Shown piece by piece: positions 1,312 to 54,771 of a stretch of DNA of 64,000 nucleotides (positions are counted from its first letter, which is position 1; every line of letters begins with the position of its first letter). Both the position numbers and the translations under genes were made by a program. The notes under the pieces are model-generated. The model was not told where the DNA came from, searched no databases, and saw only the letters and a program-made list of their open reading frames with translations. The stretch is from an uncultured virus (IMG/VR IMGVR_UViG_3300003321_000657) (lineage: Duplodnaviria; Heunggongvirae; Uroviricota; Caudoviricetes), in the IMG/VR virus record IMGVR_UViG_3300003321_000657; one strand, 5' to 3'.

Positions 1312-2375
1312 GGATTGTTAACATCGTGGACCCACATTGTCATCTTCGCGGCGAGGAGTATCCGGCTGTCGACTTCCTCGGAATGGCTTTAGACGACGCC
1401 AAGGCCGTTGGTCTGGCCGGGCTGATCGAGATGCCGAATCCGAAGCCGTGGCTGACCAATTCGAAGACCTGCGCCGCACGCGCCAACGACGTCCTGCTCA
1501 AGCAGGTCAATCGGCACATGGATATCCGTCATGGCATTCACATCGGCATGACGAATGATCCGCAGCAAGTCCGCGAAGCGCTCTCGCTGATCGCGGCCGG
1601 GTTTCCGCCCGTGCGCGGCGACAAGATTTTCTACACGCAAAGTACCGGAAATATGGGCGTCCTTGACCCGGAGTACCAGAAGTGGATCTGGGGTTACAAG
1701 GCCACGAATGGCTACAAAGGTGTCTCGATCGGGCACTTCGAAGACGAGACGTGTTACGATCAGCAGAATCCGTTCGATCCGAAGAAGCCGGTGACGCACA
1801 GCCTGCATCAGTGGAGCATCGCCGAGCAGAAGTCGATCGAGACGCAGCTCAAGAACGCCACTGATGCCGGATTCCGCGGCACGTTCTATATTGCCCACCT
1901 GACGTCACCGGCCGCGCTGGAGATCGTGCGCTGGGCGCGGAAGTTCGTGCCATTCAAGATCGTGGTCGAAGTGACGTGGCATCACCTGCTGCTGAACATC
2001 TGGGACTACGAAAAGCACGGCAACCGCGTGAAGATGAATCCGCCGCTGCGCGGAGACATGTGTCAGAAGGCGCTCTGGAATAGCCTGCTGCATGACGACG
2101 CGATCGATATCATCGCAACCGACCATGCGCCGCATCCGGTCGAACTCAAAGACAGCGACAAGCCTCCGTCAGGCATCCCGGGAATTCTGTTCTGGCCGAA
2201 AGGGATCGAGCTCTTGCATAAGTTCGGCATGGACCCGGAGCGGATCGCCGAGCTGACGTTCCACAATGCCAACCGCGTCTTTAACCTGCGGCTGGAGCCG
2301 CGCGAAGTCGACGTCGAATACAATCCGGAACTGTGGACGAAGTACGGCTGGAATCCGTTTGATCGGATTAAATGA
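1308..2375 (+). CDS. pyrC: Dihydroorotase (amidohydrolase superfamily)
   Basis: DPHCHLR metal motif, EMPN, KMNPPLR, IATDHAPH, PSGIPG; GGAGG RBS before ATG 1308; lies close to pyrD. Confidence 0.92.
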   Translation: MRIVNIVDPHCHLRGEEYPAVDFLGMALDDAKAVGLAGLIEMPNPKPWLTNSKTCAARANDVLLKQVNRHMDIRHGIHIGMTNDPQQVREALSLIAAGFPPVRGDKIFYTQSTGNMGVLDPEYQKWIWGYKATNGYKGVSIGHFEDETCYDQQNPFDPKKPVTHSLHQWSIAEQKSIETQLKNATDAGFRGTFYIAHLTSPAALEIVRWARKFVPFKIVVEVTWHHLLLNIWDYEKHGNRVKMNPPLRGDMCQKALWNSLLHDDAIDIIATDHAPHPVELKDSDKPPSGIPGILFWPKGIELLHKFGMDPERIAELTFHNANRVFNLRLEPREVDVEYNPELWTKYGWNPFDRIK

Positions 2376-3517
2376 TGATCATAGCACACAAGATCGCTCT
2401 CGATCCAACCCAGAAGCAGAGGGTATACTTCGCCAAAGCTGCTGGGTGTGATCGTTTCGTCTGGAATCTAGCTCTTGAGGAATGGAATCGCGCTTACGCC
2501 GCTGGCGAGAAACCGAATGGAGCGAAGATTAGAAAGGAGTTTAACCAGCATTGGAAACACGCGTTTCCGTGGATGGAAGAGCTACACAGAGATGCTCACT
2601 CTGAGGCATTTAGAAGGATACAGATGGCCTTCAACGCGTTTTTCGCTGATCCAAAAAAGACAGGACATCCGACCTTTCATAGAAAAGGAAGAAAAGAATC
2701 TTTTTATGTAGCAAATGACAGAATTGCATTCCGTGGATTCGCAGTTCGTCTCCCGCGAATTGGAGTGGTTAAGATGCGTGAGGAGTTGAGATATCACGGG
2801 AAGATTATGGGTGCTGTCGTTTCACGCCAAGCGGATCGGTGGTTTATATCTGTGCATGTTGACGCTGGAGTTATCGCAAAGGATCGATTGTCACATCACC
2901 GGGTCGGCGTTGACGTCGGAATTAAGCATTCGATAGTCCTGTCTACCGGAGAGATCCTAGTAGGTCCAAAGCCGCTTGCGGCTTACTTAAAGAGACTGAA
3001 GCGGCGCAGCAGAAAAACCTCTCGTCGCCTACTCGGATCGCGCAGGAGAAACAAGGCGTCGAGAATTTTATCTCGCCTCTACGCCCGTATCGCAAACATT
3101 CGAAATGACTGGATTCATAAGTTGACGACAAAGCTGTGCCGCGAGAACCAAGCGGTAGCAATCGAAGATCTGCATGTTAAGGGGATGCTTAGAAATCGGA
3201 GACTTTCCAGATCCATTAGCGATATGGGCTGGGGAGAGTTTAGGCGTCAGCTTGAGTACAAGTCTAAGATCTACGGTACAAAGCTGATCATTGCCGATCG
3301 ATTCTTTCCATCATCCAGAACATGCAGCCAGTGCGGTCACGTGAAAGAAAGTCTGTCGCTCGCAGAGCGTGTCTTTCGCTGTGACCAGTGCGGCTTCAAG
3401 ATCGACAGAGATCATAACGCCGCGAGGAACTTAATAGCGTGGGGCACACGCGAATTAACGCCTGTGGACAGTACGGCTCGTAAAGCGGCTGACAGAAGCA
3501 GGAATAGCACAGGGTAA
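2372..3517 (+). mobile_element. tnpB: TnpB RNA-guided endonuclease (IS200/IS605/IS607 type), no TnpA nearby
   Basis: N-terminal AHKIALDPT...AGCDRFVWN; RuvC residues GVDVG, IEDL, DRDHNAA; Zn ribbon CSQC...CDQC. Confidence 0.93.
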
Positions 3518-18367: not shown

Positions 18368-18856
18368 GTGATCGTTAATACAAAAGTCGGAATGTCGTTA
18401 TGGATGATGGATCTTGCGCTCGCCTTGATCGCGGCCGGAACGGGCGTCATGTTCTTTGAACGTGAAGCCAAGGCCGAAGAGGACATCAGCGCTGAAGTCA
18501 CGCAGTATCTGCGCGAGCACTCCACCGAGGCATCAGATGATGCATGGCGCGAGAAGATGCATGAGAAGTTTAAGGAGAAGCTTGCGCGCGACGACTTCTA
18601 CTCCAGCGAAGAGGCGGTAGCTGTCGAGTACGTCTTCAACTGGCTGTCGGATCACAAGGCCGCGTTCGATGAAGATCCGAACAAGCGCCGCCAGCTCAGT
18701 GACGACGAAAAATTAACGATCTGCCGCATGGCTGCCATGTTCCTAGACAACAACTGGAAGTGGCCAAAGAAGATCGCGGCAGAAATCAACAAAGAGAATT
18801 TCCGGCAATATATTGCCTCGACCAAAGTCGAGACTACAATCGTCATCCGCAGGTGA
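18368..18856 (+). CDS. Hypothetical protein with N-terminal signal or transmembrane segment
   Basis: GGAGG RBS with GTG start; hydrophobic LALALIAAGTGVMFF followed by AKA. Confidence 0.6.
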   Translation: MIVNTKVGMSLWMMDLALALIAAGTGVMFFEREAKAEEDISAEVTQYLREHSTEASDDAWREKMHEKFKEKLARDDFYSSEEAVAVEYVFNWLSDHKAAFDEDPNKRRQLSDDEKLTICRMAAMFLDNNWKWPKKIAAEINKENFRQYIASTKVETTIVIRR

Positions 18857-18937: not shown

Positions 18938-19242
18938 GGGGGTGAACCAGCATCGACGGAGTGTGGAAGGCTGCGGGAGCGCGCCGCAGGGATGGCTGGC
19001 TGCGTCAACAAGCCATCAACGTAGCAAATGCCAAGATCATTCGAGGCAACTTTGGCGTTCGCGCCAAAGCGCTGGCTGCCTGAGCCGGTGTAACCAAGCC
19101 CTTCGGGGCATAGGCACGTAGTACCCGCAGTACGGACGGATTGGATACCCGTTCGAGACCGGACGGCCAGCATGGCTGGATACGCGCGTAGAGCCCACAC
19201 TGGATGCACTTTCGGACTCGGGGGCAGCACCCGACACCTCCA
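18938..19242 (+). ncRNA. ssrA: tmRNA, one-piece; tag AKIIRGNFGVRAKALAA
   Basis: 5' GGGGGTG pairs with 3' CACCTCC-A including the G3:U alanine determinant; TCGAC after the 5' end; T-arm TCGGG-GGCAGCA-CCCGA; tag ORF 19030-19083 ends ALAA-stop; CCA not encoded. Confidence 0.93.
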
Positions 19243-19311
19243 ATCTGTCGTGAGTGGCAGCGATTTTAAGCCGCGGGTTTTGACGATACAAAACTTCGGC
19301 AGGATCAGAGC

Positions 19312-23769: not shown

Positions 23770-24690
23770 ATGGAGGGCATCATGGCCGACAAGAGTCGTC
23801 GTAACGCAGATATTTGGACTGTCAACAGCACTCAACCTATCCCGGATGATCAGATCCCGGACAGTTTACGCTCGATCCTGTCCTCTGAGCAGGACGTGCG
23901 GTATACGTCCGGGCTGATGATGAATATCGAGCCGCGCGTGTACTTCCTGTGCGCGTATGGAGAGGTGGTTTACGTCGGAGCTGCGCTGCGCAGTCCACTG
24001 GAGCGAGCCATGTTTCATTACTTCGACGGAAAGTATTTTGACTCGATGTTTTCAATTCCGTCTAGCGTAGAGGAAGTTTTCAGCAAGGAGCGCAGGTGCA
24101 TCAATGCGCTGCGGCCGTATTACAACGACAGTGGAGCGTACAAGGCTGAATGGAGGTATCGCTGGCCAGATCTCTCCAAGGAATTAGATGCGTATGCGAA
24201 GCATCGGATGAACGAGCTTCCTAATTATGGATCGCGCGGATCGCGTGGCGTTCCGTACAGCATGCGCGAGACAGACGCGAAGCATCGGATTAAATTCCCT
24301 CTGGATATTACGAATGAGCAGCGCCGCGCCCTGACGGTGCTGCGCCGACAGGCGACACTCAGTCGCAATAACGCTAGAACATGGCTGGCCGACACGCTGG
24401 CTGGAAGCCTATATGTCGATATTGCTCCGATCGCAGCAGAAACGTTGCAGGAATACGACGCGCGCAAGCTTGCAGAGGTGACGCAGCGCGCATTAGACAA
24501 GCTTGGACGCATTGATTTGCTTGCAGTCGTTGTGAATCGCACAGAAAATGAATTGCGCGCGCGTATCGCAATGCATTCGCGTGAAACTGAATTCTATGCA
24601 GAATCGCGCGCGTTAATCGATTGCCTTTTGTTGCAAGGGCAAAGCGTACGCGCTGCAAGGGGAGCAACAATGGGCGAATCAAACCAGTAA
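23770..24690 (+). CDS. Protein with GIY-YIG-like N-terminal domain
   Basis: VYFL...VVYVG...ER...H...E...I...PYYN pattern. Confidence 0.5.
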   Translation: MEGIMADKSRRNADIWTVNSTQPIPDDQIPDSLRSILSSEQDVRYTSGLMMNIEPRVYFLCAYGEVVYVGAALRSPLERAMFHYFDGKYFDSMFSIPSSVEEVFSKERRCINALRPYYNDSGAYKAEWRYRWPDLSKELDAYAKHRMNELPNYGSRGSRGVPYSMRETDAKHRIKFPLDITNEQRRALTVLRRQATLSRNNARTWLADTLAGSLYVDIAPIAAETLQEYDARKLAEVTQRALDKLGRIDLLAVVVNRTENELRARIAMHSRETEFYAESRALIDCLLLQGQSVRAARGATMGESNQ

Positions 24691-24713
24691 CGCAAAACAT
24701 AATCTGTATAATC

Positions 24714-24863
24714 AGTGCCAATTTTTGGCACTAAAGAGGTTTAGGGCTTAAATCATATAAGTCCTTGTCCTGTAAGGATTTAAGTGAAGAAAGATAATGT
24801 TCCCTTCTCTTTCATGATAATTAGTGCCAATTTTTGACACTAATTGTGCCAATTTTTGGCACT
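24714..24863. repeat. Three copies of the palindrome GTGCCAA-TTT-TTG(G/A)CAC; candidate enhancer sites
   Basis: Copies at 24714-24732, 24823-24841 and 24845-24863. Confidence 0.85.
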
Positions 24864-24909
24864 GTAGTATTTGGTAAAACAATGTAACTCTTTACAGCAA
24901 AACGACTTA
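24758..24909. promoter_or_regulatory. Two 25-bp TAA-N4-TT-N7-AA-N4-TTA elements, IHF-like
   Basis: TAAGTCCTTGTCCTGTAAGGATTTA 24758-82 and TAACTCTTTACAGCAAAACGACTTA 24885-909; half-sites partly match IHF consensus WATCAANNNNTTR. Confidence 0.55.
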
Positions 24910-24924
24910 GTTTTAGTGACGGAA

Positions 24925-24940
24925 TGGCACGTGGTATGCC
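24925..24940 (+). promoter_or_regulatory. Sigma54 (-24/-12) promoter
   Basis: TGGCACGTGGTATGC with exact GG-N10-GC spacing; predicted start near 24951. Confidence 0.7.
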
Positions 24941-24963
24941 TCACACCCATTGCCGTTTTTTGT

Positions 24964-24979
24964 TGCTCTTTGACAATTT
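24964..24979 (+). promoter_or_regulatory. boxA antitermination element
   Basis: TGCTCTTTGACAATTT differs at one position from E. coli rrn leader boxA TGCTCTTTAACAATTT; lies just after the predicted start. Confidence 0.75.
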
Positions 24980-25177
24980 GGCCGAATACCTTGCACGCGT
25001 AGCGCGTTCGCACGTGGGTGGATTCCCACTATCGGCGAATGAGGTGCACGCGCGCTAAGGTGTTTTGCCGTCATAGGGCGGGTTAGTGCTCCAATGGACG
25101 CTAGCGCGTTTCGAGTGGTATCGGACGATTCCACGCGCGCAAGGTTTGACGGAGCACAAGCGAAAGGGACGTGGAAC

Positions 25178-25849
25178 ATGGCAATCGAACACGTAGCGAA
25201 GTCACCCAAGGCGCCAGACGCGAACGACGCAAAGAAGGGCATGACAGAGGCACAAGCTTCTGACCTGCTCAAGTCAATCGCGCAACGCGTGCAAGGTCTC
25301 ACAATGCGAACGCGCAAGGAATATGTGTACATTGCGCGCTACACTCGCAAGTGGGGACGGTGGAAACTCGCGAACGCGAACGCCACGAATGCGGAATGCA
25401 TCTCTGCAATCGAGACAGAATACGACCTGCAAAACGTCAAGCTTGACGTTGGATTGATTCGCAGGTCGTTTGCCGTGCTGCCAGACTGGCGCAAGGCCGA
25501 GAAACTCGGCAAGGTCAAAGAGTTTTTCGCGTGCACCACGCAGGAGCAAGTTGACGCCTTGTTACAGAAGAAAGTAACGGCGCCGACGCGCAACGCGAAA
25601 ACTGGCATCGCGGGCAAAATCGCAGCATTTCAAAAGACACTCGCAAACTGCGTCAAGAAAAACGACGTGGAAGCTTTGCGCGTGTTCGCGAAAGTCGCTG
25701 CTGATGCCTTGGCAACCGTTGAAGGCAAGCGCAAGCGCAAGGCGCCGAAAATCGAGAATGGCGCCGTAGTGAACGACGCGCCGAAAACATCGGCGCCAGA
25801 AAAACCCGCTATGACTCCGGCGCCGGAATTGACTCCGGCCGGAGTGTGA
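25178..25849 (+). CDS. Basic Lys/Ala-rich hypothetical protein (223 aa)
   Basis: ATG 25178 in the frame of track ORF 25094..25849, preceded by AAAGGGA and followed by a terminator. Confidence 0.75.
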   Translation: MAIEHVAKSPKAPDANDAKKGMTEAQASDLLKSIAQRVQGLTMRTRKEYVYIARYTRKWGRWKLANANATNAECISAIETEYDLQNVKLDVGLIRRSFAVLPDWRKAEKLGKVKEFFACTTQEQVDALLQKKVTAPTRNAKTGIAGKIAAFQKTLANCVKKNDVEALRVFAKVAADALATVEGKRKRKAPKIENGAVVNDAPKTSAPEKPAMTPAPELTPAGV

Positions 25850-25866
25850 AAACTGAATAGAAGTGG

Positions 25867-25902
25867 ACGGGGAGCGTTGAAAAACGCTCCCCGTTTCTTT
25901 TT
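25867..25902 (+). terminator. Intrinsic terminator
   Basis: 12-bp stem ACGGGGAGCGTT-GAAA-AACGCTCCCCGT followed by TTCTTTTT. Confidence 0.8.
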
Positions 25903-25947
25903 GCTCATTCTCGCGAGTGAGCAAAAAGAAACGGAATACCGTTTCAC

Positions 25948-26740
25948 GTGACTGTGCAGCATTGCGCAGACGGAAAAACATGGGCGGAGTGTGTAACTCT
26001 GTCATGTGTGAGTGTGGCCGGAACGCCGATACGGTGCGACGTGCGAGCAATGCCGTGTTGGGTGTAGTGTAGAGCCTCTGTCCGCATGCCAGACGAAAAT
26101 TTCCGGTGACCATGACCGGTCTGCGATGCCTTGTCACGTATGCCGATGAACGGCTAAATGCCGCGGCATATCTGCACAGTCACCTTTGAGCGCTGAGTGG
26201 CCGAAAGTGCAAGGGCAATAGCCTTGCAGCGTGTTGGATGCTCTGTCGCGTACGCTTCCGGATGGAAGCTAATCGGCGCGATGGAACATCGAATGCGTGC
26301 ACGCTACCTATCGTCGTGGGGCGTACTGAGAATGCGCACTTGAACGGCGATAGACTGTGCGAATATTCGCAATTCCGGGTTAAGCGCCGTGCGCTCCGGA
26401 TCTGCGCAAGGGTGAACTATTGCCTTTGAAAATTCGCGCAACCCGTCCAGTATGAGAATCGGGTAGGGTGCTTGAAACAGCACGACGTTACGCCATTACG
26501 GGAAAGAAGTAGAATGGTGCGCGCCCGCGATCACGCGCGGCCGGATGCAGGGGAGTCCTCACATCCCGCCGTCAAATCGCCCTTCTTGTCCAGTGGAATG
26601 CACTGGCAACAATCGAAGATAGAACTGATGCAAAATATTGGCAAGGCTTAACCGCGGCCTTTGTGTGCGGCAATGCACAGACTTTGCATCGCAGTTCGGC
26701 CGGGCGCAGTAGTGCAAGATGCTGCGCCCGGCCATTTTAT
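25948..26740 (+). ncRNA. Large (~800 nt) highly structured non-coding RNA, family unassigned
   Basis: No credible CDS; more than 15 helices including GTGACTGTGCAG 25948-59 / CTGCACAGTCAC 26172-83 and long-range GGTTAAGC 26378-85 / GCTTAACC 26646-53; ends at a terminator. Confidence 0.75.
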
Positions 26741-26743
26741 TTT
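26698..26743 (+). terminator. Intrinsic terminator at the 3' end of the large RNA
   Basis: GGCCGGGCGCAG...CTGCGCCCGGCC followed by ATTTTATTTT. Confidence 0.75.
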
Positions 26744-26774
26744 CGAAACGTTTTCACAACAAGAGGGTGACACC

Positions 26775-29700
26775 ATGTCTGCACAAAATACGCTGGGTGT
26801 AGTGCGCAGCGCGCGAGAAGAAGCGCTTCGCCACTGCAAGCACGGAGAAAAGCCGCAAGTGAGCTCAGAATCGAACATCCGGCCGATCGGACCCTGCAAG
26901 CCGCTGACGCTCAACCTTGGCGCGCTGCTGAAAAAGGCGCTGCGCTGATGGCGATGCGCAACGACACGCGCGCGGAGCTGCGCATGCTCCGCCAACTCGT
27001 CTGGCATGCGATCGAAGGGAAAGTCTGCCGTTTCTGCGGCAACGCACTGGCGCCAGACTGGGAGATCGCATACGGCCATGGCGACGCGCCAGAGATGCCG
27101 GTGGAGCTCACTCTCCACCACATCGACGAAAATCCAAACAATAACGCGCCTGCAAATCGCGAGATCTGTCATCGCGCGTGCCACAAGGCACACCATATGA
27201 GCGCGCAGCGGCGCTCGGGAGTAACGGCATGAGCTACTTTCGGATTAACGCAAATAATGTGGCGCATCTTCACAAGGGTATCGACTTTGTCGCGGCCGGT
27301 GGACAGCATATTGTCAGCTTTGCCCTACTAACAGATCCATTCCCACAGGGTGTATCTATCGCCATCGCTGATTATGTTGATGGTATCTGTACACGCGCCG
27401 CACACAATTCGACGGTGTCAACGGAGTGTTTTAATCAGTTTAAAGAAGATACGAGGCTGCGTGCTGTGCGTCTTATGAAGCTTCTTAGGAATGAACAGGA
27501 GCGAGCTAAAGCATGAAATGCGCCCGCACGGCATGCGACCACGAAGAAGAAGGTTGGCAGCACACGGACGGCACGAAGCGCCGCTACTGCGGCCAGTGTG
27601 CGCACAAGATCAACGTCTTTCATCACGACTTCTATAAGACCACAGACGATCTGATCCGCCATATCAGCGGAAAAACCGCACAGCAGCTCGAACTGGAGAA
27701 ACGCAAAAACAATGCACCCTGATCTACTCTGGATTCAAACCAGACTGTACAACAACATTGCCTTGCGCACGCAGAGTCGCATTTACCGCGCGTTCGAGCA
27801 AGCGCCGATGAGTCAGAAAAACCGCACAAGGGCTCTCGCAGCGCTGTCGATCTCACGCATTCATTCCATCACCAACAGCCGCATACAGAGTTTCGCGCGA
27901 AGGGAGCGAGCGCATGGCTAAGAAAGCCACGGCGTTCTACAGCCCGGTTCCATTGTCGGCCTGTCGCATCTGCGGAACAAGGTTGCGGCCGGGACAGTGG
28001 GCGACATGCGGCAATAGCCATTGCAGCGAAGCGAACCACTACGGCGCTCTGGCCGAACTGCGGCCGCGCCTCAAAGAGCAGTACATGCAGCGCAGCAATG
28101 AAGCGCGCGCATGCCGAATGCGACAACTCGGAGACTGAAAGGACGCACATGCTAACCGCTAAACGCTGCGATCAATGCGAGCTCCTGCGCATCAACGGCG
28201 TGGTCTGCCACGAGATCGGCTGTCCGAACATGGGCGCCAAATGGGACCACGAGCGCGAGCAGTGGGTGCATTACGTCGAATGCTGGGAGTGCGGCTGCGA
28301 AGTCGAAAAGGGCGAGGCGTGCTCGTGCATGACGCCAGAAGAGGACTTGGACGAACATGGCTGAAACGAACTACAAAGGCATCGACTACGGACTGGGCCA
28401 GTCCAATGTCGATAAGTCAAACGGCATCCGCTACGGCGTGATCAATCAGAATGAGGTCCTGCAAGCGTGGTGTGACGCCAGCGAACCGTACTACGGGAAA
28501 CCGACGTGTCCGAAGTGCGGCAACGAAGCTATCGAATCGGACAAGGCTCCGGAGAAAGACGAGGACGGAAAGCCGATCGATCGTGACGAGTACGAAGAGG
28601 GTCACGGCTGTAACGATTACGTCTGCGATAGCTGTAAGTACATCTTCGATAGCGACGAAGCATTCGGCGACGAACCGATCTCGCACTACATCGACGACGA
28701 GGAATACAAGGCCGAATGCGGAGAGTCGGGCGACATTTTCATCACAAAGTCGCCCTACTACACGCGGGCGCAATTCTGCTCACCATGCGCGCCGGGTGCC
28801 GGGTATCTCATGAACCCGTGCGACAGCGGAGAGAAGGCGTATTGCTTCGGCCACGACTGGTTCGAAGATAAGACGGCGCCTTATCCGGTCTACCGCGTAG
28901 ACGACGATTCGCTGGTTTACCCGGACGTCGATTACTACACGCGCAACGGCGACGAGCAAGTGGTGGGCTGGGACATGGACGAAAGCGGACTGCATCCGTG
29001 GGTGCGCACGCGGCGCATGGGATTCGTGGTGTACAACGGGGAGACGAAATAATCGACGGAGGCAGCACATGGCTGATCTACCCAAACACCTTTTCATCGG
29101 ATACCCCGGCAATCTATACGATACGCGAGTGCCAGAGTGGCACAAGCAAGCGCCGCTGCGGCCAAACTACCAGTACACGGCACGCGAGATTAAGACCGTC
29201 TCCCAGTTGAAAGCGACGCTGCGCGCCGGTCCGTACGCGTGGCCGGGCGGGTATCCGCTGTACTTTCTGTGCAGCGACGGAGAAGCACTGTCGTTTAAGA
29301 CCGTGCGCAAAGAGTTCAAATTGATCGCGCGGGCGATCAAGCACACGGACAATACGGGCGGCTGGCGCGTGGTCGGTTGCGACGTGAATTACGAAAAAGC
29401 GGATCTTTACGACGCGCACACCAACGAAAAGATTGAGGCTGCATACGTATGAGAAAGTCACGCTGCACGCGCTGCAAAGGTCGCGGCTACTACACGATCA
29501 AGCAGTGGGTCGGACACTACTGGAGCCGCCCGGCGATCACGTGCGGCGTCTGTGGCGGAACAGGAAAGAAAGGAGCGGAAAATGCTTCCAGTTGAAGAAG
29601 TCGGCGAAGGACTGCTGATGTTCAAGGCAGAAGATCTCTGGGAGTTGGCAAAGCAGTGGGGGCGCGAAAACGGCAAGGAATACAAAAACGGAGCGCTCCA

Positions 29701-52741: not shown

Positions 52742-53620
52742 GTGGCCTTCAAGTACCTGATCACCAAAGGCATCGGCAAGCGCGGACACGTCGAAGGCAA
52801 GAGCCAGTCGAAAGAGTGGAGCTTCGAACAGAAGCAGGTGTACGCGATGCTCCGCGAAGTCGAGAAGTCCAAGGACGAGTTCAACGAGAACTGGCTCCGC
52901 GACTACGCCCTGCTCTACCTTGCCTATGGCTTCGGCCTGCGCGTCGGTGAAGTCGTTCAATTGGAGCGGAGGCATTTCCGCGACATCATCGACATGGTGG
53001 TCCACCTTCCTACGCTCAAGAAATCCAAAAAAATCGTCTACCGCTGCACCGGAGAAGTTGACGGAGAGAAGTGCACGCGCGTCGTCAGAGTCAAGCGCGA
53101 TCGCGCTGGCAAGGACTTCACCTGCGTTCGTTGCGGTACGAAGGGTAAGATTCCGGTCCCGGAGTGGATCAAGGATAACAGCACTCCAGAACGCGATGTA
53201 CCGTATATCGAGGAAGAAACGATCCAGTTCGTGGTCGACTACATGAAGGCCATGCGTCCCGATCAGAAATTCTTCTTCGAGTCTCCGAAATTCAAAAACA
53301 AAGACGCATCCGGCGATCAAGCCGCCACTCCCGCCCGCCACCTTAGCGTGGTGACAGCCTGCCGTATCATGTACACGTTCCTCGCCCGAGCTGGACTGAG
53401 CAATAAGTTCAGCTTTCACGCCTTCCGCCACGGCCGTGGCAAGCGCATCTTCTCCGTCATGAAAGACTTCAAGTCGGTCATGGAGAATCTACGGCACGAT
53501 TCCATAAAGATGAGTGCGCGCTACGCCGCCATCGACGAAGACATGAAGGAAGAGGCTAAGAAAAAGCTCAAGCGATCGGCGGCGTTCTCTCCGATCCGGA
53601 TCGGAGATCAGAAGACATGA
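52742..53620 (+). CDS. Tyrosine recombinase with Cys4 insertion
   Basis: RDYALL...GLRVGE, FHAFRH, LRH, RYA catalytic set; C-x8-C...CVRC insert. Confidence 0.88.
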   Translation: MAFKYLITKGIGKRGHVEGKSQSKEWSFEQKQVYAMLREVEKSKDEFNENWLRDYALLYLAYGFGLRVGEVVQLERRHFRDIIDMVVHLPTLKKSKKIVYRCTGEVDGEKCTRVVRVKRDRAGKDFTCVRCGTKGKIPVPEWIKDNSTPERDVPYIEEETIQFVVDYMKAMRPDQKFFFESPKFKNKDASGDQAATPARHLSVVTACRIMYTFLARAGLSNKFSFHAFRHGRGKRIFSVMKDFKSVMENLRHDSIKMSARYAAIDEDMKEEAKKKLKRSAAFSPIRIGDQKT

Positions 53621-54363: not shown

Positions 54364-54771
54364 TTGAAGACAAAGACGCATTACGAGATCCTTGGCGTCC
54401 TTCCGAACTGCAAGACGGAAGAGATCAAGGCCGCGTACCGCAGGCTGGCGAAGACGTCACATCCAGACGTTTCCAAGAAACCCAAGGACGTGGCTGAACG
54501 CGAATTCGCCGACATCAATCTGGCGCACGACACTCTGATCGATCCGGCCAAGCGCGCGCAGTACGATTACGCACTCGCCACGCGCGAAGAAGAACCGCCA
54601 TCGACCTTGATGACGACCATTCTGGAAGGAATGCGCGACATCTTCACGCCATCATCTTCGAAAAAAGCAAAACGTTCTCGAAAAAAGAAAGCCAGCAATA
54701 ACATTCCCGATGTAGAGCTCGACGAAATTCCGGACGGATGCGAAATTGGTGAAGAATCGTTCTTTGAGTAA
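54364..54771 (+). CDS. J-domain (DnaJ-like) protein
   Basis: THYEILGV...EIKAAYRRLA...HPD...FADINLAH...RAQYD. Confidence 0.9.
   Translation: MKTKTHYEILGVLPNCKTEEIKAAYRRLAKTSHPDVSKKPKDVAEREFADINLAHDTLIDPAKRAQYDYALATREEEPPSTLMTTILEGMRDIFTPSSSKKAKRSRKKKASNNIPDVELDEIPDGCEIGEESFFE

Follow-up and report, generated by a model that had tools for sequence, protein, structure and literature searches.

The locus described here belongs to an uncultured phage, roughly 130 kb in size, and we analyzed it within a 64,000-nt stretch of that phage's DNA, which we refer to as the window. Read along the + strand, it presents three palindromes, two promoter candidates, a boxA, a leader, a gene for a basic protein, a first terminator (T1), a duplex, a folded noncoding stretch, a second terminator (T2), and finally small genes of early type. 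The individual features are as follows:

24715..24731, no strand: palindrome 1, GTGCCAA-TTT-TTGGCAC (7+3+7), an exact copy of 17 bp, its motif unique to the locus
24824..24840, no strand: palindrome 2, with a single mismatch that creates TTGACA; its centre is 22 bp from that of palindrome 3
24846..24862, no strand: palindrome 3, an exact copy that overlaps the -35 of the sigma70-like match
24856..24883, + strand: sigma70-like promoter candidate from a motif scan, TTGGCA-16-AACAAT (9/12)
24925..24939, + strand: sigma54-type -24/-12 candidate, TGGCACGTGGTATGC, the sole exact TGGCAC-N5-WTGC in the 64-kb window
24964..24981, + strand: boxA with its flank, TGCTCTTTGACAATTTGG, 18 nt, equal to a motif that precedes rRNA, tRNA, and tmRNA genes in Planctomycetota and elsewhere
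24980..25069, + strand: leader hairpin 1, -51.1 kcal/mol, z -4.31, beginning 4 nt past the 13-nt boxA
24988..25006, + strand: leader segment complementary at 18/19 positions to codons 34-40 of the ORF (25279-25297), an alternative to hairpin 1
25082..25161, + strand: leader hairpin 2, -36.1 kcal/mol, z -3.59, ending 17 nt ahead of the start codon
25178..25849, + strand: gene for a basic, all-helical orphan protein of 223 aa, with a codon-phase GC spread of 0.20-0.30, typical of coding sequence
25865..25904, + strand: terminator T1 (hairpin 25865-25896), a 14-pair stem and then CTTTTTGC, -27.2 kcal/mol
25891..25934, + strand: 20-bp perfect duplex overlapping the 3' arm and U-tract of T1, -31.6 kcal/mol, z -9.46, pair probability 1.00
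25928..25945, - strand: small terminator-like hairpin followed by TTTTTGC, -9.3 kcal/mol, z -3.3
25946..26697, + strand: predicted body of the folded noncoding RNA, 0.75 kb, with no ORF and low codon periodicity
25948-26183, + strand: predicted RNA domain 1, with a closing helix of 11 bp
about 26184-26618, + strand: RNA domain 2, multi-hairpin in the predicted fold
26622-26697, + strand: RNA domain 3 of the predicted fold
26698..26743, + strand: terminator T2 (hairpin 26698-26733), a 14-pair stem and then ATTTTATTTT, -33.1 kcal/mol
26775..26948, + strand: first member of a run of small genes, 32 nt past the T2 tail, with no promoter-like match between

The locus is present in four DNA sequencing runs from one root-metagenome study, with no RNA run listed, and the run contigs that match it are all identical, with zero variants.

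The boxA motif and the structured leader

The original prediction had placed a near-perfect rrn boxA ahead of the gene, and this was borne out: TGCTCTTTGACAA, at 24964-24976, agrees with the E. coli rrn form at 12 of 13 bases, and it is the sole match at up to one mismatch in the window, where 0.09 would be expected. With its flank, the motif spans 18 nt and occurs without mismatch at least 120 times among reference genomes, compared with a chance number that we ourselves estimate at about 17, and 44 of 80 titled loci that contain it belong to Planctomycetota according to their titles. Among 20 such loci that we scanned, the 18-mer adjoins rRNA, tRNA, or tmRNA genes in 14, lying directly ahead of a same-strand 16S or 23S gene in 11, abutting tmRNA in one, and standing in tRNA arrays in two; the remaining six have nothing within 400 nt. 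Likeness to the phage stops at the edges of the 18-mer, which is therefore a conserved signal rather than a copied leader. In IMG/VR, we found five contigs with the same 18-mer, two of which carry it within tRNA/tmRNA clusters and in the correct orientation. We consider the boxA very likely genuine, and the phage probably infects a bacterium of the Planctomycetota. The phage tmRNA has no BLAST match in five Planctomycetota genomes and is thus uninformative about the host.

The boxA lies 201 nt from the ATG, with a highly structured leader in between. Both hairpins of the two-hairpin leader of about 200 nt that had been described were recovered, and the leader as a whole folds with a z of -5.55 over 200 shuffles. 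Repeats of the size of the complement between leader and ORF arose in none of 60 shuffles. Our preferred reading, which we put forward tentatively and at not quite an even chance, is that the locus would form an early regulatory transcription unit with the + strand order listed above.

Palindromes and promoter candidates

The three predicted palindromes, GTGCCAATTTTTGGCAC, are found at 24715, 24824 (with one mismatch), and 24846, and are absent elsewhere in the 64 kb. By chance, 0.21 matches would be expected, and none of 100 shuffles reaches the observed number. Three exact palindrome matches in IMG/VR were rejected as chance occurrences, one of them (L002) falling within an ORF and none of the three being accompanied by a boxA. 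No phage-wide promoter motif could be derived from the intergenic gaps. The boxA is on the correct strand, and the two promoter candidates lie 25-110 nt upstream of it. The sigma70-like candidate is weak when taken alone, because two such matches occur in 3.5 kb compared with 2.2 expected.

The sigma54-type candidate bears on another explanation, the one originally put forward, in which an enhancer ATPase bound at the palindromes would activate a sigma54 promoter with the help of an IHF bend. This promoter would drive an rRNA-style antiterminated operon whose basic protein and 0.8-kb RNA would assemble into a ribonucleoprotein, with expression gated by a host signal. The same boxA evidence serves this explanation as serves the early regulatory unit. 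As predicted, the GG-N10-GC promoter motif matches exactly (TGGCACG-N4-ATGC, 24925-24939), but it occurs at chance level, with 0.32 matches expected and at least one match in 30 of 100 shuffles; likewise, when one mismatch is allowed, the window has 8 near matches compared with 9.4 expected, hence no enrichment. Upstream of the candidate, palindrome 3 is centred at a distance of 97 nt and palindrome 2 at 119 nt, and this pairing of sites, 22 bp apart, has the geometry typical of activator sites. The half-site TTGGCAC, however, shares the -24 hexamer, so that the “promoter” may instead be a degenerate fourth half-site, and the palindrome is rare in Planctomycetota, being found once each in 5 of 401 genomes compared with 11 of 401 for the reversed control pattern. 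The two IHF-like 25-mers that had been reported were not recovered: WATCAANNNNTTR, the E. coli IHF consensus, has no exact match in the window, and none at up to one mismatch in 24690-25177. An IHF site between activator sites and promoter is frequent in sigma54 systems, though not obligatory. No enhancer-binding ATPase (PF00158) was detected among the scanned proteins of the window, which include one AAA protein with PF00004 only. On the host side, the RpoN DNA-binding domain (PF04552) scores above cut-off in all five Planctomycetota genomes bearing the boxA 18-mer, a lineage that we presume to include the host, and sigma54 promoters of canonical form are predicted in Planctomycetia (PMC12316311). 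Weighing these points, we regard the enhancer-driven explanation as unlikely, while according it an appreciable share of the probability. Since palindrome 3 is overlapped by the sigma70-like candidate, its sites may just as well be operators for a repressor, and the sigma54/enhancer reading, possible as judged from these motifs, is supported no better than that one.

The basic protein, the terminators, and the folded noncoding stretch

The ORF at 25178-25849 encodes a 223-aa protein that is indeed basic, as had been stated, with a pI of 9.8. Its start codon is backed by a relative, P0002, and its family is small, comprising five further clusters at 28-70% identity, with a basic character throughout (pI 9.5-10.8); P0007 (2309 aa, repetitive, E 4e-4) was not aligned, being a low-complexity match. 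Of the relatives, P0003 and P0006 lie on an ENA contig of 121,217 nt, P0004, P0008, and P0009 on Logan contigs of up to 109,728 nt, and P0002 and P0005 on short contigs. Searches with the protein against Pfam, PHROGs, PDB profiles, and the Atlas gave no usable match and no similarity to N, Q, or any known family. Searches by fold offered no guidance either, with a best Foldseek E of 0.35 and a best VIA Z of 6.8, the latter on a helical hairpin. Relatives were absent from INPHARED phages, using either blastn with the locus or tblastn with P0001, P0004, and P0005. Scans of IMG/VR with the 223-aa protein, P0004, and the upstream 306-aa protein gave nothing, nor did alignments A1 and A3 against JGI metagenomes or A3 against GTDB genomes; alignment A2 was of too great a divergence to yield search patterns. 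Comparing the locus DNA with 401 Planctomycetota genomes, we obtained only matches of 23-60 nt in 26 of them, whose E values per genome (6e-4 to 1e-2) correspond to chance level.

The two terminators predicted around the noncoding stretch are both strong (T1, -27.2 kcal/mol; T2, -33.1 kcal/mol), and are the sole + strand terminator-like sites with stems of at least 12 pairs between 5 and 46 kb. The strength of T1, with its U-tract, would suit a division of the locus into two units, one in which boxA and leader control the basic protein alone, by translation repression or attenuation as at suhB and lambda N, with transcription stopping at T1, and another in which the RNA is separately promoted and ends at T2. 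The 18/19 complement between leader and ORF suggests a translational switch, and boxA-mediated autoregulation has precedents among protein genes (PMC5725501). Against this division, we found no sigma70-like + strand match from T1 to the next gene (25850-26775), although the promoter rules that we scanned for may not be those of the host. The downstream genes, too, are without such a match after T2. Moreover, the 20-bp duplex bridges T1 and the beginning of the RNA and thereby links both parts. We therefore hold two separate units to be quite unlikely. Under the single early unit that we prefer, transcripts that pass T1 would contain the duplex, which is a candidate site for processing of the RNase III type. 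On the opposite strand, the small terminator-like hairpin at 25928..25945 hints that the region may to some extent be transcribed on the - strand too, a point that we count against the single unit.

The densely paired noncoding stretch of about 800 nt was also confirmed, in that the 811 nt of 25850-26660 contain no ORF, the longest such stretch on the + strand of the window. Its fold reaches a z of -7.41 for 25897-26745 and of -4.58 for the interior minus the terminators, compared with +0.36 to -2.54 for seven coding controls. The ORF RNA also folds better than these controls (z -3.84), so that local base composition may account for some of the structure signal. Averaged over scan windows, z is -1.26 for the + strand and -0.02 for the - strand, the fold includes 32 G-U pairs on the + strand compared with 12 on the - strand, and 151 of 297 predicted pairs are in helices with p of at least 0.9. 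The lack of an ORF and the computed folds support a 0.8-kb stretch that is noncoding and strongly folded on the + strand only. Rfam 15 at gathering scores returned nothing in the window except a tmRNA located elsewhere, and even at E up to 10 the 2.3-kb locus gave only chance-level miRNA/sRNA matches on the terminator hairpins. An intron, ribozyme, or riboswitch was rejected, because Rfam gave no match. Another block with pronounced structure, near 49.7 kb, turned out to be coding.

We also considered that the 0.8-kb stretch might be a decayed gene or a spacer acting at the DNA level, such as an origin or packaging site, with folds that are not selected RNA structure. In line with this, no homologue was found, a weak residual codon-phase signal (0.12-0.16) extends across 26201-26651, and the AT-rich upstream region with its palindromes could be an initiator-binding site. 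The excess of structure is nevertheless strand-specific: among 1203 blocks outside the locus, 0.7% score as low on the + strand compared with 46% on the - strand. In addition, the stretch is flanked by T1 and T2, which have no equally strong + strand counterpart within 40 kb, and the cumulative GC skew of the window shows no turn at the locus. Stop codons are mixed throughout all six frames, and for this reason a recoded or broken protein gene was rejected. With these observations, a remnant or spacer appears improbable.

The proposed unit and its relation to known systems

Judged by its sequence, the locus is real and unusual, and it would represent a novel form of a boxA-led antitermination unit, with a function that we propose as follows. 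In the early regulatory unit that we prefer, the three 17-bp palindromes would bind a dimeric regulator, and the sigma54-type or sigma70-like candidate would serve as promoter. As happens in rrn operons and at lambda nut sites, the boxA in the nascent RNA would recruit the NusB/NusE (Nus) complex of the host, such that the polymerase could then withstand termination across the long untranslated folded RNA and continue past T1 and T2 to the genes downstream, possibly aided by the basic protein in the place of lambda N. The folded RNA would be the + strand part of this same transcript, possibly excised at the 20-bp duplex. Antitermination of the E. coli rrn type acts on Rho-dependent terminators and poorly on intrinsic ones, and read-through of T1 and T2 would thus require an extra factor. 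To the proposal in its fullest form, that is, host-like, rRNA-style RNA synthesis with Nus loading at a perfect host boxA, passage of T1 and T2 aided by a new basic protein, unrelated to N and encoded in that transcript, release at the duplex, and an early protein-RNA ribonucleoprotein containing a new class of RNA, we give a slim chance.

In its layout, the locus is as close to lambda pL-nutL-N-tL1 as to an rRNA operon. In common with lambda pL-OL-nutL-N-tL1, the locus has three 17-bp palindromic sites at the putative promoter, as well as a small basic protein gene followed by an intrinsic terminator and then by further early genes. It differs in that the 223-aa protein has no detectable similarity to N, that its boxA is of the full host rrn type whereas the lambda form is weaker, and that no small boxB hairpin was identified, the 90-nt hairpin beginning 4 nt after boxA; furthermore, the 0.75-kb folded noncoding RNA and the second terminator have no lambda counterpart. 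The placement of boxA is again shared, about 200 nt ahead of the gene with a structured leader between, since PMC5725501 puts lambda nutL some 200 bp before N, the two being separated by a leader that is highly structured.

With the boxA of rrn leaders and spacers (NusB/NusE/NusA/NusG/SuhB), the phage has in common 18 nt identical to the motif ahead of 16S and 23S genes in many Planctomycetota, and with the rrn operon it shares a predicted long, untranslated, highly folded RNA downstream and a long duplex potentially used for processing. In contrast to that operon, a protein gene and an intrinsic terminator here separate boxA from the RNA, which has no leader-trailer helix enclosing all of it and is not rRNA, tRNA, or tmRNA. 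The large RNAs GOLLD and ROOL of phages and prophages, together with the big bacterial ncRNAs OLE, HEARO, and raiA, are comparable in size class, in dense multi-domain folding, and in phage context, but the RNA of the locus matches no Rfam family. Outside rRNA, boxA also stands ahead of CRISPR arrays, which yield other long untranslated RNAs, and of suhB. The Nus complex serves in such cases to protect or regulate transcripts, as PMC5725501 describes for suhB. Our locus differs from both examples in belonging to a phage, in its host lineage, and in the kind of RNA concerned.

If the proposed reading is true, the rRNA antitermination signal of the host is copied exactly by phages beyond those of the classical model hosts, for long untranslated RNAs of their own, and antitermination of the lambda and rrn types extends to Planctomycetota, in which transcription control is almost unstudied. 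The locus would then provide a candidate new family of antiterminators or RNA-binding proteins and a large folded phage RNA outside every known class, and an exact boxA match would offer a simple, testable clue to the hosts of uncultured phages. Among the IMG/VR contigs with the 18-mer, one displays a promoter-like site and a hairpin, then the 18-mer, and then about 1 kb without a + strand ORF of at least 60 aa.

The boxA and its 18-mer in other genomes

Read along the + strand, the locus comprises the following features:
24715, 24824 (one mismatch) and 24846: three copies of the palindrome GTGCCAATTTTTGGCAC
24925: sigma54-type promoter motif TGGCACGTGGTATGC
24964: boxA TGCTCTTTGACAA
25178-25849 (+): ORF for a basic protein of 223 aa
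25865-25904 (+): terminator T1
25891-25934: perfect 20-bp duplex
25928-25945: small hairpin, terminator-like when read on the - strand
26698-26743 (+): terminator T2

The strongest new result concerns the boxA, which is the only match in the window within one mismatch of the E. coli form (0.09 expected). Searching GTDB contigs (one genome per species), we found at least 120 exact copies of the boxA 18-mer TGCTCTTTGACAATTTGG; by our estimate, 596 Gb would contain about 17 copies of a random 18-mer. By title, Planctomycetota account for 44 of the 80 titled loci among the matches listed. We scanned 20 loci with Rfam and found that in 11 a 16S or 23S rRNA begins no more than 400 nt downstream, in the same orientation, that the 18-mer lies within a tRNA array in two and abuts a tmRNA gene in one, while six had no Rfam match in the flank examined. 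The boxA is very probably genuine and of the rrn type, as originally predicted, and its 18-mer recurs ahead of rRNA genes. Outside the 18-mer, the flanks of the genome loci show no similarity to the phage, indicating that the phage carries the conserved signal itself rather than a captured leader.

In the locus that abuts a tmRNA gene (L081, 401-771 of a Phycisphaerales MAG, a genome of the probable host lineage), the 18-mer overlaps the first two bases of that gene (417-771), which suggests that a boxA leads tmRNA expression in some Planctomycetota. The window's own tmRNA gene (18938-19243, + strand; RF00023, 63.3 bits, E 2e-22 in Rfam; uncalled by ARAGORN) has no boxA upstream; sigma70-like matches at 18786-18814 and 18813-18840 directly precede it.

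The same 18-mer is present in five IMG/VR contigs, none of which shows a resemblance to the window's folded RNA; the surroundings are described for three. In a 226-kb jumbo-phage contig (L137), the region 1971-2518 has a tmRNA gene of the permuted, two-piece type with the 18-mer immediately behind it and tRNA genes after that, and another contig has the 18-mer within a tRNA array. On the - strand of the 84.5-kb contig L139 (about 2640-1300), a terminator, the promoter-like site TTGACG-17-TAGAAT and a short hairpin precede the same boxA, and about 1 kb lacking + strand ORFs of at least 60 aa follows, containing tRNA-like D-arm words and matching nothing in Rfam or ARAGORN.

The ORF, its leader and the folded noncoding stretch

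The ORF is a real gene, since its start and sequence are backed by a 70%-identical protein and four more distant clusters, and its codon-phase GC is of the coding type. All members of the protein family are basic, as had been proposed for this product. Relatives were located in ENA and Logan assemblies, and in the protein collection the product occurs on contigs of up to 129,915 nt. The family's N-terminal and C-terminal parts were predicted as two individual proteins, P0003 (148 aa) and P0006 (76 aa), both from ENA contigs 121,217 nt long; they probably represent one gene, split or frameshifted, in a relative.

The leader is predicted to fold into the two long hairpins expected (-51.1 and -36.1 kcal/mol; leader z -5.55). 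Its segment 24988-25006, the 5′ arm of hairpin 1, is complementary at 18 of 19 positions to codons 34-40 of the ORF (25279-25297), with a second, weaker partner at 25335-25351; this complement may act as a switch coupled to translation or be cleaved. Apart from this pairing and the 20-bp duplex, the locus has no inverted repeats of that size, and none of 60 shuffles gave any.

T1 and T2 flank the noncoding stretch as predicted, with stabilities of -27.2 and -33.1 kcal/mol, and are the sole + strand terminator-like sites with stems of at least 12 pairs between 5 and 46 kb, other terminator-like matches occurring at chance frequency (17 versus 19.8 expected and 22 versus 19.6 expected). The 20-bp duplex, with a stability of -31.6 kcal/mol, a z of -9.46 and a pair probability of 1.00, extends over T1's 3′ arm and U-tract and could serve as a processing stem in a read-through transcript.

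The stretch 25850-26660 is the window's longest on the + strand without an ORF of at least 70 aa, the next longest being the tmRNA gene and then the control region upstream; stop codons are mixed in all six frames, and the spread of codon-phase GC is low. It is predicted to fold exceptionally well, with z-scores of -7.41 (25897-26745) and -4.58 (the interior, terminators excluded) as compared with +0.36 to -2.54 for seven length-matched coding segments, in line with the claim of about 800 nt of densely paired noncoding sequence. Of the 25 best-folding 200-nt windows on each strand of the 64 kb, 15 on the + strand and 8 on the - strand start within 24651-26601. The excess structure is specific to the + strand, where the interior has a mean window z of -1.26 (a level reached by 0.7% of the 1203 blocks taken from outside the locus), versus -0.02 on the - strand (as low in 46% of blocks), and the predicted fold has 32 G-U pairs on the + strand versus 12 on the - strand. 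Helices with a mean pair probability of at least 0.9 hold 151 of the 297 predicted pairs, and no Rfam family matches the stretch. The ORF itself folds better than the coding controls (z -3.84), so that less of the structure signal is attributable to a dedicated RNA gene. Taken together, the boxA and a predicted folded + strand noncoding RNA are credible.

Palindromes, promoter candidates and the likeness to lambda

The three predicted palindromes are confined to the locus within the window (0.21 matches expected; the observed count was reached in none of 100 shuffles). The proposed sigma54 promoter stands as the window's only exact match, but a single match of this kind is no surprise: the chance expectation is 0.32, and 30 of 100 shuffles contain one or more. 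Near matches show no enrichment (8 versus 9.4 expected).

The palindromes can be read in two ways, which fit to a similar degree. They might be activator sites for the sigma54-type promoter, since the centres of palindromes 2 and 3 lie 119 and 97 nt upstream of it, 22 bp apart, and sigma54 is present in the probable host phylum, being encoded by all five Planctomycetota genomes tested. However, no PF00158 protein was found among the scanned proteins of the window, the palindrome occurs in 5 of 401 Planctomycetota genomes versus 11 of 401 for the reversed control pattern, and the predicted IHF sites were not recovered: the E. coli IHF consensus has no exact match in the window and none with up to one mismatch within 24690-25177. 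Alternatively, the palindromes might be operators of a phage repressor, being 17-bp sites, the same size as in lambda, with palindrome 3 overlapping the -35 of a sigma70-like TTGGCA-16-AACAAT, although this match is not significant alone. The + strand genes at 52742-53620 and 54364-54771 encode a tyrosine integrase and a protein with a DnaJ domain, respectively. The phage is possibly temperate, and a temperate lifestyle would speak for the repressor-operator reading.

The order of parts (sites, promoter, boxA, structured leader of about 200 nt, basic protein gene, terminator, more early genes) is common to lambda pL-OL/nutL/N/tL1. According to the Discussion of PMC5725501, nutL precedes N by about 200 bp and the leader between them is highly structured; in the phage of the window, 201 nt separate the end of the boxA from the ATG. 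For the ORF protein, however, no relationship to N or to any other protein could be detected with Pfam, PHROGs, a PDB profile search, Foldseek, VIA or Atlas. The original prediction was largely right in its observation and is partly supported in its interpretation. Its sigma54/IHF/enhancer gating and its ribonucleoprotein are putative, and a lambda-nut-like early antitermination module is at least as good a description.

Gene content and source

Coding in the window is dense, mainly on the + strand and of phage type, including thymidylate synthase, thymidylate kinase, a HerA-like ATPase, HNH endonucleases, integrase, topoisomerase, TnpB and a weak tail-spike match. The locus is present in four DNA runs, all from one root-metagenome study, whose contigs are identical to the window. 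The TnpB/IS605 OrfB-type protein (2372-3517, + strand) has HTH, OrfB and Cas12f-like TNB domains, and its gene is followed by a low-GC gap of 74 nt, at the 3′ end where a TnpB guide RNA would be expected.
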